From the IMG/VR virus record IMGVR_UViG_3300033145_000777, positions 1-64,000 of that record: a stretch of DNA of 64,000 nucleotides; one strand, 5' to 3'. Below, in pieces: positions 7,314 through 56,733 of this stretch (the stretch's first letter is position 1; every line of letters begins with the position of its first letter). A model generated the notes under the pieces. That model was not told the DNA's origin. It worked only from the letters and a program-made list of their open reading frames with translations, and did no database searches. The translations under genes were made by a program, and so were the position numbers. Origin of the DNA: a virus.

Positions 7314-7658
7314 ATGAACATCGTTGAAACCATTTGGTGGGTACTGATCGCGTACACCACGTTCATCAGAATGAAGTACCTCTGGCTAGGAAACAAGGTC
7401 AGAAGAACCAAGTCCACTGAGTCCATATCCACCAAAGCGATCCTGCATACTCATATCGAGTACTGGATTATGTTCGCGCACAACCTGAACATCTCGGACT
7501 TGAAAGACCAGATATTCTGGGGGTTCGGTATCTTCACGACGATGTTCACAGTAGTAATGCTTTGGAGGCACCGCGAAGACCAAGAGGACAACCTCAGGCA
7601 ATGGCTATGGAAGGGACTTCTCGGTAAACTCAAGAATGAAGGAGGAATACTAGGATGA
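7314..7658 (+). CDS. small membrane protein, PQ-loop/SemiSWEET-like
   Basis: Hydrophobic segments with RRTKSTESIS resembling the PQ-loop motif. Confidence 0.45.
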   Translation: MNIVETIWWVLIAYTTFIRMKYLWLGNKVRRTKSTESISTKAILHTHIEYWIMFAHNLNISDLKDQIFWGFGIFTTMFTVVMLWRHREDQEDNLRQWLWKGLLGKLKNEGGILG

Positions 7659-8485
7659 ATTATCAAGACTTTTTCGGAGTACGAGGGTTCCACTCCCTCG
7701 TATTCGGCTTAACTAATCAATGCAACCTGCACTGTGAGAAATGCAGCGGGATGTTCAACTTCCCCATTGACCCAGAATCACCATACCCAAACAGAAGGAC
7801 TTCATGGCAGCTCCCTGTGAGTGACGTTGAAACATTCTGTGAAAAATTCAAAGGAATAGGGGAGGAAAACAACCATCGTCTAACTGGAGGAGAACCAACT
7901 GCTATTGCACCTGAGCTATTCGAGGAGATAGTTGAGGTCCTCCACTCATACGGAAGGCGCGTCACCATCATAACAAACGGGTTCGGGTTGATGGACATAG
8001 ACCATGCTACTCTGAACCAGATAAGCACGATCTTCTTGAACGATCATGGCATAAACCATGAACACGTTGAGAATTGCGTCAAGTACTTGAAACCCTTCTA
8101 CAAGGGAGCCATAGGAAGGGACTCGAACACCTACCACTTCGATCTATGGAAAGCAAAGGACGATCAATCGAATAAAGGTAAGAAGTGTGGTATGTGGATG
8201 ACCTTACCGACTCTGCTTAGAGGAGTGTTCTATCCATGCTGTAATATGCCTCTCATAGGGGAGTTCGACCAGAACCCGGACATCCACAACAGCTTCATGT
8301 CTGCTGGATGGGCTCTCAATGATGTGGATATAGTTCATAACTTGAGGAATTGGCGTAAGACCATTCCAAGATACGCTGTAGATCAGTGCATGGATAATTG
8401 TTGGCAACCTAACCCCAGTGTAGGTGGACGCTTCGACATAACCTCCAAACCCAACGACGTCATTAAAAGAGGGACACTGGAATGA
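7655..8485 (+). CDS. radical SAM protein with Cys-containing C-terminal domain
   Basis: CNLHCEKC, LTGGEP, ITNG, C-terminal YPCC and CMDNC. Confidence 0.85.
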   Translation: MNYQDFFGVRGFHSLVFGLTNQCNLHCEKCSGMFNFPIDPESPYPNRRTSWQLPVSDVETFCEKFKGIGEENNHRLTGGEPTAIAPELFEEIVEVLHSYGRRVTIITNGFGLMDIDHATLNQISTIFLNDHGINHEHVENCVKYLKPFYKGAIGRDSNTYHFDLWKAKDDQSNKGKKCGMWMTLPTLLRGVFYPCCNMPLIGEFDQNPDIHNSFMSAGWALNDVDIVHNLRNWRKTIPRYAVDQCMDNCWQPNPSVGGRFDITSKPNDVIKRGTLE

Positions 8486-20232: not shown

Positions 20233-20286
20233 TTTAGCCCATAAACTTTATATAAGTTTCTAGCATAGATAGTTTGACCCAAAATG
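20233..20286 (+). promoter_or_regulatory. promoter cassette copy 2
   Basis: Identical over 54 bp to 56269..56322; ends at the ATG of 20284..20487. Confidence 0.85.
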
Positions 20287-48670: not shown

Positions 48671-49263
48671 TGCAGGAAATTGACCCAAGAGTAGAAGCTC
48701 GTATGGATGATCCGAATGCTCCAACACTCAAGTCGAAGTACATTATGAGTCTTGTTGTTATTGCTAAACCTAAGACATGGATATACGCTATCCTGACCAA
48801 GGATACTCATGACATCATGGGGAAGGTGAGGTGGTATGGTATGACTTACATCTTTGAACCCAACAATGACCCAAGATATGTTGACAGGTTCTATGAGAGT
48901 TGCTTGAGGGCTATCGCTGACTTTATCCATGACTTGAAGGAAGAAAGAAAAGAAGCCAAGAAAAGGAGAGAGATTCGGAGGAGTAATGATGACATGGTAT
49001 GAGACAATTTTTTATGCTTGCCTGTATGCTTGGGTTGGGCTTGGGTTTGGTTTCTGGTTGAGGCGTGTCTGGGATTACAATAAAGAGGAGGAGAAGAACC
49101 ATGAAAACTGATCGCCTCAAGACACATTCAGACCAATATACCTATCCTAACTCATCGAAACATCAGTTATCAAATCAACCATTTTTACTGCTCTATTTAA
49201 ACAATTAAACCGTATTACGGGTTTCACTCAACTATGACCCCCTGAAATCAAAGTTCTTATATA

Positions 49264-49292
49264 ATATCATGCATGAATATCATGCATATCAT
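49264..49292 (+). promoter_or_regulatory. tandem operator-like repeats next to a TATA box
   Basis: ATATCATGCAT twice plus a partial third copy, directly after TTATATAA. Confidence 0.55.
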
Positions 49293-49315
49293 ACACGTTC
49301 CTCATGTGGTTTACT

Positions 49316-49453
49316 ATGGTGAAAACAATTAGAATTGAAAACATTCCCGACATTCTATATGAAAGGCTCGTAGAACTCAAAAAACAGCATAAAGTTAAGA
49401 GGTGGATTGATTTTCTTTGGATAGTAGAGAAAGTGATGGAAAAATACGAGTAA
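49316..49453 (+). CDS. RHH-like small regulator (45 aa)
   Basis: MVKTIRIENIPDILYERLVELKKQHKVKRWIDFL; not in the supplied ORF list. Confidence 0.55.
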   Translation: MVKTIRIENIPDILYERLVELKKQHKVKRWIDFLWIVEKVMEKYE

Positions 49454-53283: not shown

Positions 53284-54048
53284 ATGGGAGGAAGCTCAGT
53301 GAGCTTCTTTGAATACTGTAATCTCAAGGAGTTCGGGATGCTAATGGATTGTGTTCGATCTGTTATTGAGCAACCCGTTATGACGATAAACGAGGAAGGA
53401 ATACACTGCATGGGTATGGACCCTAGCCACGTAGCTATGATGGAGTTTAAACTTCCAGCAACAGCATTCACCAAATTCCAGCCCTTCGGTGAGGACGTTC
53501 TATGGGATATTGACTCGATGAAGAGAAAGCTGTTCAAGAAAGCCAAGATCACTGAAACCCTCACATTCAGGAACCTGATCACTAAAAAGGTGTTGGAATG
53601 GACGAGGAGTGAGCAACACCTCAACAGGGTCAAGCGTTTCCCATACATTGACCCACTTAAAGAGGAGGTGCCCTCACCGAAGATTAGATGGCAAGGCATA
53701 GTGAGGATTGCTTCAACCCCTTTAATCACAGCACTAGAAGACTTCGATGAACACGTATTCTTTTCGCTGGACAAAGATGTCTTCAGCTTATCCGAGCTAA
53801 CCGATGTGTCTGAGGATGAAACGCCTTGGGATAAGGATAACAACTCAATCCTCGAAATGACTCAACTAACTGAAGAACCTGTAAAGTCTGCGTACAGTGC
53901 TGTGTTTCTGCTCGATATAATGAGACCTCTAAGAAAAGTAGCTGAGGTGGTCAAGCTCTCATTCACAACTAGTATGCCTACGCTAATAGAAGCTGAGCTC
54001 CCCCAAGGAACGATAAAGTACTGGCTGGCTCCATGTATAGGACTATGA
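53284..54048 (+). CDS. pcn: PCNA DNA sliding clamp (start probably GTG 53299)
   Basis: GMDPSHVAMMEFKLPATAF, VKSAYS..FL, IKYWLAP; ~250 aa. Confidence 0.88.
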   Translation: MGGSSVSFFEYCNLKEFGMLMDCVRSVIEQPVMTINEEGIHCMGMDPSHVAMMEFKLPATAFTKFQPFGEDVLWDIDSMKRKLFKKAKITETLTFRNLITKKVLEWTRSEQHLNRVKRFPYIDPLKEEVPSPKIRWQGIVRIASTPLITALEDFDEHVFFSLDKDVFSLSELTDVSEDETPWDKDNNSILEMTQLTEEPVKSAYSAVFLLDIMRPLRKVAEVVKLSFTTSMPTLIEAELPQGTIKYWLAPCIGL

Positions 54049-54834: not shown

Positions 54835-55508
54835 GGAGGAATGAAAAATGCCTGAAATTGATCTTGGGTTCTGCCCACGATGTAAAAGCGATTGGCCGAT
54901 GATGACAAGGGTTGTCTATGGTGTGAAGTTCTGTCACCTTTGTTCCTTTGAAGTGGAAGAGAATCGTCATGAGCGTGAACGATGGGTACAGTGGGCTAAG
55001 GACTACGCAAAGGAGAAATGAAAATGGCTGACATAATTATTGATTATAAAGGAAACTGTCCCAACTGCGATAGGTCAGACTTTGAGGTTGTCGATGAGTT
55101 TGGAGAGGAACTTCAATGGATCAAATGTCGTTATTGTAGCGAACCCATTCACACTGAAAACGGAAAGATTGTGGAGGAATGAATGATGCCGTCGCCAGCT
55201 CAGTTACGAAACAAAAGGATAAAGAAACTCGTAGAATATGGTAAGGAGTCAGGGCTCCTAGAAAATTGGGTGAACATCTATGATAGCCTGTTCACGAAAG
55301 CGAAGAAGCTGTATCCGACAGTTGCAAGAAACACACTTCAGACGTATGCTAGAGCAGCGTACAGTATTCTTGAATCTGAACGAAACCCATAATCTTAATT
55401 CCAACCATGACAAATAATAGATAGCCCGGTAGCAAAAGGGATTCTCCGTGTTTGCCATTTGGGTCACTACCGGGTGACTTCAATTTGGGATCTAAATAAC
55501 CGACCAAC

Positions 55509-55562
55509 TTTTGCCCATAAACTTTATATAAGTATTCTGTACAAGAAGGTATGGAACCAAAT
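55509..55562 (+). promoter_or_regulatory. promoter cassette copy 8, lacking the terminal ATG
   Basis: tttgcccataaactttatataag...gaaccaaataa. Confidence 0.75.
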
Positions 55563-56170
55563 AACCACCTGAAGGGGAAACCCCTCTCATGGATGGCTTG
55601 GTTCTGGGATGGAAACATCTCATAGGGCGAGCACATTCCTGAAAGTTCACCTCCTTAGGGAAGTCTTGGAAACATGGCAAAGATGGAATTGAATTAATTA
55701 AGCTGATTGATTCTGCTCTTCCCTTCATACTCCCTATATGGGCTCCGAGTCGCTCAAAAAATGGGAAGGTGGTATCCCGCCTTCTCCGGTTAGAGCACCA
55801 GAACGCAAATGCTTCTGGAGGTCCACTCAAAGGTGCTAAAAGCATCCAAAACCTGAGAGTGAGAACGTCTAAGTCAGAATGGATGCTGGCTTAGAAGGTG
55901 CATGAGGATTGCGAACCGTCTCCTCCTCGGGTGCCAATTCACGCTTCCTGCCAGAGGAATACCGACCAGCTTCGGCTGTTAGGGTAACTGGCATCTCCCC
56001 CTTGGTGGAATCGGGGGGAGATTTACTATCCAACAGGAATGGATACGGAGTCACGGGTGACTCTGTCTCAATGTGAGTAAACAAAAAACCCAGTAGGGGT
56101 GGTTCCTGCCACTCCTACGAACTTTAATCTCCCCCAAGAGCGAGAAGAGGAACTCGGTAAAATACCTCAT
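55560..56170 (+). ncRNA. candidate large structured non-coding RNA
   Basis: No + strand ORF of 60 aa or more; roughly ten stem-loops, including GAAA and cUUCGg tetraloops; promoter upstream, tRNA downstream. Confidence 0.6.
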
Positions 56171-56174
56171 TATT

Positions 56175-56259
56175 GTCCGGTTCGCCTAATCTGGTGGGGC
56201 AGTAGTCTTGAAAACTACTGAGCTTGCTCATACAGGTTCAAATCCTGTACCGGACGCCA
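56175..56259 (+). tRNA. tRNA-Ser(TGA) with encoded CCA
   Basis: Acceptor GTCCGGT/ACCGGAC, anticodon arm GTAGT-CTTGAAA-ACTAC, long variable arm, T arm ACAGG-TTCAAAT-CCTGT, G discriminator. Confidence 0.93.
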
Positions 56260-56271
56260 ACTTTTTATTTT
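56260..56271 (+). terminator. oligo-T archaeal-type terminator
   Basis: CTTTTTATTTT directly after the tRNA. Confidence 0.5.
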
Positions 56272-56322
56272 AGCCCATAAACTTTATATAAGTTTCTAGC
56301 ATAGATAGTTTGACCCAAAATG
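56269..56322 (+). promoter_or_regulatory. promoter cassette copy 9
   Basis: Identical to 20233..20286. Confidence 0.85.
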
Positions 56323-56733
56323 CCAATCATCATTCCCATCATTGAAGGCGAGGTATACTGCGACGGCATGATATGCGTGAGTGCATACAAGAACATCGAG
56401 AAAAGAAAGGCTTGTCCTGACCGGAACACAGGAATGCTCTGTGGCGGTAAAATGAGGGACGTCTATAAGGATGAGGTAGATGTAGAGATTGAATCTTATC
56501 CTGATCTCAACGTCAACATTCACAGGAAAATTAGGTTAGTTAGGTCTGAGGGAAGTTTCGAGGTTCTGTTTAATTACTCAGTACATTGGGATAAGGATGA
56601 TGGCATGTTGACTGGCTCTATTTCAAGTTTCATGGAAAGAACTGATACCTTAGACGAGGCTATCGCTCTGGTTGATACTATGACTGATCAGGTTAAAGTA
56701 CGAGCAGTTCGATCCCGTAAAGCAGGAATATAA
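56320..56733 (+). CDS. hypothetical protein
   Basis: Starts at the cassette ATG. Confidence 0.55.
   Translation: MPIIIPIIEGEVYCDGMICVSAYKNIEKRKACPDRNTGMLCGGKMRDVYKDEVDVEIESYPDLNVNIHRKIRLVRSEGSFEVLFNYSVHWDKDDGMLTGSISSFMERTDTLDEAIALVDTMTDQVKVRAVRSRKAGI

Follow-up and report, generated by a model that had tools for sequence, protein, structure and literature searches.

A candidate large structured noncoding RNA encoded upstream of the only tRNA gene of an archaeal-type tailed virus

We describe a region of about 620 nucleotides (nt) in the genome of a tailed virus, IMG/VR record IMGVR_UViG_3300033145_000777, that is a candidate for a large structured noncoding RNA (ncRNA). The region lies on the + strand at positions 55555-56174, between a promoter cassette and a tRNA-Ser gene; the DNA analysed, here called the window, comprises bases 1-64000 of the 81,182-base pair (bp) record, which carries a 114-bp direct terminal repeat. 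The best explanation, to which we give a probability of roughly 0.55, is a new orphan large structured ncRNA of an archaeal-type virus, made together with tRNA-Ser and receiving its 3' end from RNase P. The geometry of the cassette would set the 5' end, and cleavage by RNase P where the tRNA begins would set the 3' end. An initial annotation of this DNA had proposed an archaeal-virus large RNA or a set of small RNAs. The absence of an open reading frame (ORF) or protein-family signal and a fold beyond that of shuffled sequences agree with a structured + strand RNA and support the proposal in part, and the choice between one RNA and several is weighed below. The region is a well-supported candidate, not a demonstrated RNA.

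The region 55555-56174 was folded and compared with dinucleotide shuffles of itself, a control that the initial annotation had named among the results able to refute it. On the + strand the minimum free energy (MFE) is -225.0 kcal/mol against -190.0 +/- 5.5 kcal/mol for 60 shuffles (z -6.34), and none of the 60 reaches it; the - strand has a z of -3.10, reached by one shuffle in 60. A separate run with 20 shuffles per strand gave z values of -5.65 (+) and -3.47 (-). Hairpins of at least 8 pairs, with G-U allowed, make 19 entries on the + strand (2.5 expected from the length) and two on the - strand (3.1 expected). This difference indicates that the helices depend on G-U pairs, possible only in the + strand RNA; in DNA, or on the opposite strand, the same positions would face each other as C-A mismatches. 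Regarding stems of at least 9 pairs (G-U again allowed), the region has seven hairpin axes, whereas 500 shuffles have a mean of 0.70 and a maximum of six, so none reaches seven. Among 260 windows across the genome, the two richest in such axes are the two that overlap the region. Because the + strand folding score, the hairpin axes and the entry counts all point the same way, the structure is strand-specific and RNA-level. The base composition of the region is also more balanced than that of the genome, with 23.7% C versus 19.8% and 27.8% A versus 31.9%.

In the predicted RNA ten local hairpins stand out as robust, with pair probabilities of 0.8-1.0. It opens with a long 5' hairpin (55554-55604, pair probability 0.80-0.96) built of GAACCAA/UUGGUUC, CCA/UGG and UGA/UCA and tipped by AGGGG-AAA-CCCCU, followed directly by a GAAA (GNRA-type) tetraloop hairpin of 7 pairs, one of them G-U (55605-55622, probability 1.00). 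Further on are an A+U-rich hairpin of 9-10 pairs with the loop AAGCU (55691-55713, probability 0.98), a hairpin of 10 pairs, two of them G-U, with the loop UAUC (55763-55786), the hairpin CCAGAA/UUCUGG (55798-55818, probability 0.98) and one of 10 pairs (one G-U) with the 8-nt loop AAUGGAUG (55868-55895). The 3' part holds a C(UUCG)G tetraloop hairpin (55967-55978), a hairpin of 9 pairs (one G-U) with the loop CGGG (56045-56066) and one of 11 pairs (one G-U) with the loop UCCU (56093-56118, probability 1.00). The seven helices listed in the initial annotation are all found where it placed them and contain 59 pairs, of which 53 are Watson-Crick and six G-U, with no mismatch; only the one at 56045-56066 was described inexactly, since it has 9 pairs and a 4-nt loop rather than 10 pairs. 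Between 55993 and 56135 two alternative helices can form: GGGGGAGAU(U) at 56014-56023 pairs either with AUCUCCCCC at 55993-56001 or with AAUCUCCCCC at 56126-56135. In other words, GGGGGAGAU at 56014 has two possible AUCUCCCCC partners, one at 55993, giving a local hairpin, and one at 56127, whose use would enclose the next two hairpins; the MFE structure uses the downstream partner, and the alternative may be a switch or may be due to chance. Two short long-range helices of 5-6 pairs are also probable in one fold, 55548-55552 with 56162-56166 and 55745-55750 with 56152-56157, although the 5' strand of the first probably lies upstream of the transcript.

The promoter in front of the region is a cassette of the B recognition element (BRE)/TATA type, located on the + strand at 55509-55554 with its TTTATATA box at 55524-55531. 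Fourteen such cassettes were aligned genome-wide, and in them the TTTATATA box stands about 28 nt before the start codon (28 nt in the other cassettes, 27 in two copies). Thirteen of the 14 end in GAC[CT][CT]AAA(A)[AT]TG (GACCCAAAATG). The copy at 55509 alone ends in GAACCAAATAAC, with ATA in place of ATG, and is, as previously stated, the sole cassette without a terminal start codon. Its 20-mer CCCATAAACTTTATATAAGT occurs exactly at 20238, 55514 and 56274, in the cassettes starting at 20233, 55509 and 56269, and the window contains seven copies within 3 mismatches, compared with none in 100 shuffles. From the fixed geometry of the cassettes, transcription would start near 55554-55560, where the first predicted hairpin begins.

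Downstream of the region lies a tRNA-Ser gene with anticodon UGA and an encoded CCA (56175-56259, + strand), identified by ARAGORN and by Rfam RF00005 (54 bits; gathering score 29). ARAGORN finds no other tRNA gene in the 81-kb genome. Three nt after the CCA starts the oligo-T tract TTTTTATTTT (T5AT4, 56262-56271, + strand), which is the first run of at least four T downstream of the promoter and probably terminates the unit. The 630 nt that follow the promoter are free of such T runs, where 1.4 would be expected, and no TATA-like box was seen by eye in the 60 nt upstream of the tRNA. The simplest reading of this arrangement is a single transcription unit made of promoter, 620-nt RNA, tRNA and terminator. 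RNase P cleaves tRNA leaders, and here its cut would form the 3' end of the RNA. The suggestion in the initial annotation that the RNA is co-transcribed with tRNA-Ser agrees with this layout, in which a cassette stands in front and no oligo-T tract occurs until after the tRNA.

The next promoter cassette (56269-56322, + strand) ends in the ATG of the ORF at 56320-56733. The unit of RNA and tRNA is bracketed by direct repeats, each composed of CCAACTTTT and a cassette, at 55504-55533 and 56257-56293 and exactly 760 nt apart. The repeats suggest that the unit moved in, or is movable, by recombination between cassettes. More generally, the cassettes may act as recombination points for whole units.

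The region also appears to be without coding capacity. When + strand ORFs of at least 60 amino acids (aa) were masked over the whole genome, positions 55393-56319 (927 nt, tRNA included) formed the longest uncovered stretch, followed by 872 nt at the genome end and then by 476 nt; what had been described as the largest gap without a + strand ORF thus holds that rank genome-wide. All six reading frames are closed, and as stops of all three kinds are present, no single stop-codon reassignment opens a frame. The four longest frame pieces have no match in Pfam or PHROGs, and a minus-strand ORF of 117 aa has no homologue among 5.8 billion proteins. The codon-usage score of the region is below the genome median, without being distinctive. 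Together these results show a stretch without coding capacity, as judged from its sequence.

In order to identify relatives, the region was compared with RNA families, viral and plasmid sequences and metagenomes. At the Rfam gathering score only the tRNA passes. With the threshold relaxed to E<=10, a search of 1101 nt returned nothing in the region and a single 14.8-bit rdlD match outside it, which is meaningless, and all 4227 models run on both strands of 55540-56176 (637 nt) gave 0 matches. The covariance-model comparison that had been recommended thus yields no family at that threshold. Candidates such as RNase P RNA, group I and II introns, tmRNA, rRNA fragments and self-cleaving ribozymes were accordingly discarded for lack of an Rfam match at E<=10, and the same threshold gave no covariance-model match to GOLLD (RF01998), ROOL (RF03087) or manA (RF01745). 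A blastn search in distant mode found nothing in 50,697 phage records or 72,556 plasmids. IMG/VR was searched through the downstream ORF, the large terminase and the presumed capsid protein without result, and exact patterns (a hairpin, 35 letters of the tRNA, the promoter cassette and 21 letters around the UUCG hairpin) were not found there either. In the metagenome contigs of JGI, neither an alignment of the downstream ORF with its one relative nor 27 letters of the tRNA retrieved anything. That one relative of the downstream ORF, the only one in 5.8 billion proteins, is partial (80% identity, 93 aa) and lies on a 639-bp ENA contig; because it covers only the C-terminal part of the ORF, the contig probably runs away from the RNA.

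The terminase provided another route to related viruses. An alignment of 10 terminases (the query and nine relatives) led to 80 loci in IMG/VR, the best at 43% identity, and to 49 loci in GTDB, the best at 41% and situated on a 34.6-kb contig in a Saccharibacteria metagenome-assembled genome (MAG). A BLAST search of the complete records for 50 of these 80 IMG/VR loci gave only matches of at most 35 nt; the best (E 2e-4) falls in an A+T-rich part and was taken as chance. A covariance model of 55940-56140 recovers its own source at E 1e-65 and had 0 matches in 49 of the 80 records. For the 49 GTDB loci only five genomes were searched by BLAST, and the RNA with its tRNA found nothing in four Methanobacteriaceae MAGs and one 'Saccharibacteria' MAG. 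The promoter cassette is absent from five of the nearest terminase relatives. Overall, the region fits none of the catalogued RNA families, and no relative of it could be detected.

The closest RNAs in kind are GOLLD and ROOL, which often lie near tRNA islands, with GOLLD env-38 downstream of a Met-tRNA (10.1101/2024.12.08.627333); the remark in the initial annotation that these RNAs often lie beside tRNA genes is correct on the same authority. The candidate resembles them in being virus-encoded, several hundred nt long, noncoding, densely folded and adjacent to a tRNA. In particular, it is found in a virus record with terminal repeats and has tRNA-Ser directly after it, as expected for the virus-encoded, tRNA-near position of GOLLD. 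It differs in that no covariance model matches and in that the host domain is another, given the archaeal-type promoters and the PCNA gene of this virus. The viral RNA also lies upstream of a single tRNA, with which it would form one unit. A further mark of GOLLD is its assembly into a multimeric RNA-only cage. Another comparison is with the tRNA cluster of phage T4, which contains small stable RNAs (species 1 and 2, RNA C and D) that are co-transcribed with the tRNAs and released by host tRNA processing. The logic of maturation would be alike; however, species 1 and 2 are well under 200 nt, while the present RNA would have about 620 nt and is accompanied by one tRNA only. The manA RNA (RF01745) is similar as a promoter-driven structured RNA in a gene-free unit, but its model does not match at E<=10.

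A cellular parallel exists in Methanobacteriales, where the 7S (signal recognition particle, SRP) RNA gene is reportedly linked to a tRNA-Ser gene, according to the title of a 1990 study by Haas et al. In three of the four Methanobacteriaceae genomes that we analysed, namely all three in which an SRP RNA was found, its gene is followed 180-370 nt downstream by a tRNA-Ser(GCU) gene on the same strand. The likeness is that of a structured ncRNA gene on the same strand and just upstream of tRNA-Ser, whereas the anticodon is UGA in the virus and GCU in Methanobacteriaceae, and the viral RNA is twice as long. Descent from SRP RNA was considered and rejected. Run on the virus at E<=10, the model RF01857 gives 0 matches; it is positive in three of four Methanobacteriaceae and in 12 of 14 control genomes. 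BLAST and nhmmer show no likeness outside the tRNA.

Several points weigh against a large RNA made with tRNA-Ser. No homologue of the region was found in any collection searched, so that the case rests on one sequence, and a sequence known only once, from a virus that is itself an orphan, could be DNA in decay or a recent acquisition. The transcription start, the release by RNase P, the stability and the co-transcription are all deductions, and no RNA sequencing run on record contains the region. Only the local hairpins are robust, as choosing a 5' end 10 nt away alters the long-range pairing. The two 300-nt halves have z-scores of -2.40 and -3.26, which lie at the extreme edge of the background and not far outside it: 92 windows of 300 nt from 1-27.6 kb have a mean of -0.05, a standard deviation of 1.1 and a minimum of -3.09, the latter in a coding window, and 62 others from 45-64 kb have a minimum of -2.67. 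The absence of T runs is by itself not significant with 1.4 expected, and the codon-usage score does not sharply separate the region from the surrounding regions of small genes.

Four other explanations deserve consideration. The region could encode a precursor, made with the tRNA as in phage T4, that yields not one large RNA but several small stable ones, each a hairpin or a pair of hairpins. We regard this as unlikely, even though the robust elements are ten local hairpins, the only two probable long-range helices are short and dependent on the 5' end, and a covariance model of the 3' third scores well alone, which shows self-consistency only. Against it, ARAGORN and RF00005 see one tRNA in the window, no internal tRNA-like element that could direct RNase P or RNase Z was seen, and neither an internal promoter cassette nor a T tract is present. 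Motifs resembling the bulge-helix-bulge (BHB) targets of the splicing endonuclease number 31, against a mean of 22 in 30 shuffles (range 12-34), which is chance level. About equally improbable, in our estimate, is that the region has no function, being a long tRNA leader or decaying or recently acquired filler between recombining cassettes, with incidental hairpins. Such filler would fit the lack of any relative to show selection on the sequence, the direct repeats of cassette and CCAACTTTT 760 nt apart, which are expected of a segment that recombined in, and the 300-nt z-scores at the background edge. Against this, filler of 620 nt would be the largest gap in a densely packed genome; no frame piece resembles any protein family; and the excess of long G-U hairpins on one strand (0 of 500 shuffles; 19 versus two entries) is unlike decaying DNA.

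It is very improbable that the region works at the DNA level, as a replication origin or recombination site, for example, within the replication module. The largest intergenic region would be a natural place for it, near the PCNA gene (1.5 kb upstream) and an MgsA-C-like gene, but the region, at 49% G+C compared with 45% and 43% for the two 1-kb windows around it, is not A+T-rich, it lacks iterons or repeat families beyond the promoter cassettes, and the cumulative GC skew does not turn there. Moreover, only one 9-pair stem is a perfect DNA palindrome; the remaining stems rely on G-U pairing and are lost on the opposite strand. We give least credence of all to one or more small peptides, or to a protein made through an unusual code or frameshifts. 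Frames that begin with ATG do exist, with 24 codons at 55552 and 26 codons at 55902. The first ATG, however, sits 8 nt closer to the TATA box than a start codon does in the other cassettes, and so probably precedes the transcription start, the second has AGGUG only 1 nt ahead, and stops of all three kinds interrupt the frames, which match no family or homologue. Weighed together with these alternatives, the large RNA made with tRNA-Ser is the reading that we prefer.

Further ideas were examined and set aside. Excision of a circular archaeal RNA at BHB motifs was rejected, the motifs being at chance level and the only case with arms in the flanks (55594/56259) having arms of 3 and 4 pairs. A decayed tRNA array is not indicated, as ARAGORN and RF00005 find one tRNA only, and no TIGR- or CRISPR-like repeats were found. 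As an antisense regulator of the virus's own genes the region is no better, with 15 complementary 11-mers where 12 are expected.

Regarding public DNA data, two listed runs contain 0.04 of the sampled words, and each has one 151-nt contig that matches only 56178-56224, within the tRNA, so that neither run bears on the RNA. In these contigs, one of them from a run labelled marine sediment metagenome, the tRNA-Ser is identical over 47 nt of its 5' half and then diverges, and it is closely preceded by the apparent 3' end of another tRNA.

The virus itself is tailed, as shown by a gene for a tape-measure protein (PF10145). Its large terminase has thousands of relatives in a full HMMER search, the best of which anywhere reaches 53% identity, which makes the virus an orphan. 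Judging by size and position only, the ORFs at 73654-75384 and 78474-79367 were taken for the portal and capsid genes. Pfam also identifies a PCNA gene (PF00705) at 53284-54048 and a gene for an XPB-type helicase, and an MgsA-C-like gene lies near the candidate RNA. With the PCNA, the XPB-type helicase and the 14 promoter cassettes, gene expression in this virus looks archaeal-type. Before 84 starts of internal genes, GGAGG/AGGAG/GAGGT sites are enriched 5 to 9 times. No integrase, RNA ligase or reverse transcriptase was found among the 29 proteins put through Pfam. The best relative of the PCNA in 5.8 billion proteins has 25% identity, and terminases of Methanobacteriaceae proviruses in GTDB are near 30% identity to that of the virus. 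The nearest terminase relatives on long contigs (41-43%) are both on contigs of about 35 kb, one of 34,570 bp in GTDB and one of 34,920 bp with terminal repeats in IMG/VR. The GTDB contig has been assigned to a 'Candidatus Saccharibacteria' MAG, probably through mis-binning of a virus. The promoter cassette is absent from both contigs.

Some observations concern other parts of the window. The spacer of 116 nt between the upstream ORF and the promoter (55393-55508) contains a hairpin of 8 pairs, formed by CCCGGTAG at 55434 with CTACCGGG at 55466, and at 55451-55466 an inverted copy of the conserved end of the cassette with its start codon (the complement of TGACCCAAATGG). The ATG of this inverted copy opens a 66-codon frame on the - strand, antisense to the ORF at 55183-55392. 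If transcribed on the + strand, the spacer would be antisense to the 5' ends of cassette-driven messages. Elsewhere, the interval 7501-7800, which is coding and belongs to a glycosylation gene block, has the lowest folding z of the 92 background windows (-3.09). The interval 48800-49400 has the second-highest density of short + strand hairpins, with 12 entries per 635 nt; it belongs to an A+T-rich stretch that has a 414-nt ORF-free gap (49003-49416), and its folding z values of 0.67 and -0.82 are not unusual.

Under the preferred reading of a large RNA made with tRNA-Ser, the virus would transcribe the unit from one of its 14 standard cassettes, the copy at 55509 having lost its start codon. 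Transcription would run through the RNA into the only tRNA gene, tRNA-Ser(UGA), and stop at the T5AT4 tract. Host RNase P would then cut at the first base of the tRNA and free the RNA with a defined 3' end, after which the RNA would persist as a stable, structured molecule and act in trans during infection. That the RNA and the tRNA form a module directed at translation is conceivable but doubtful, and what remains would go to a role of the GOLLD and ROOL kind. For a more specific form of the translation module, the relevant segment is UCACCUCCUUA at 55647-55657 (+ strand); the internal genes of the virus have Shine-Dalgarno sites of the GGAGG(U) type to which this segment is complementary. 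It contains CACCTCCT, which occurs nowhere else on the + strand of the genome (81 kb), a feature noticed after the fact, and its pairing state is ill-defined in the folds. We take UCACCUCCUUA to equal the 3' tail of 16S rRNA, that is, the anti-Shine-Dalgarno sequence; RF01959 found no small subunit (SSU) rRNA in the three MAGs searched for a comparison of the 16S tail. In three Methanobacteriaceae genomes the 9-mer CACCTCCT is several times rarer than its reversed control. It is a long shot that the RNA and the tRNA form a unit that takes over translation, the RNA displaying the 11-nt UCACCUCCUUA and thereby soaking up Shine-Dalgarno-led messages or docking on ribosomes, while sparing the leaderless cassette-driven messages. 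Were this so, archaeal viruses would have their first class of large regulatory RNA, and a new means by which a virus biases translation would be known.

Full-text searches, read as listings, yielded no paper that describes a tailed virus of archaea as carrying an RNA of this large, structured kind. Large structured ncRNAs are rare, and the few viral ones known (GOLLD and ROOL) are bacterial and of still unknown function. If real, the candidate described here would be an archaeal-virus example with a simple and testable route of maturation, namely a cassette that lacks its start codon, a transcript shared with a tRNA and release by RNase P, and it would be a good target for probing and cryo-electron microscopy.

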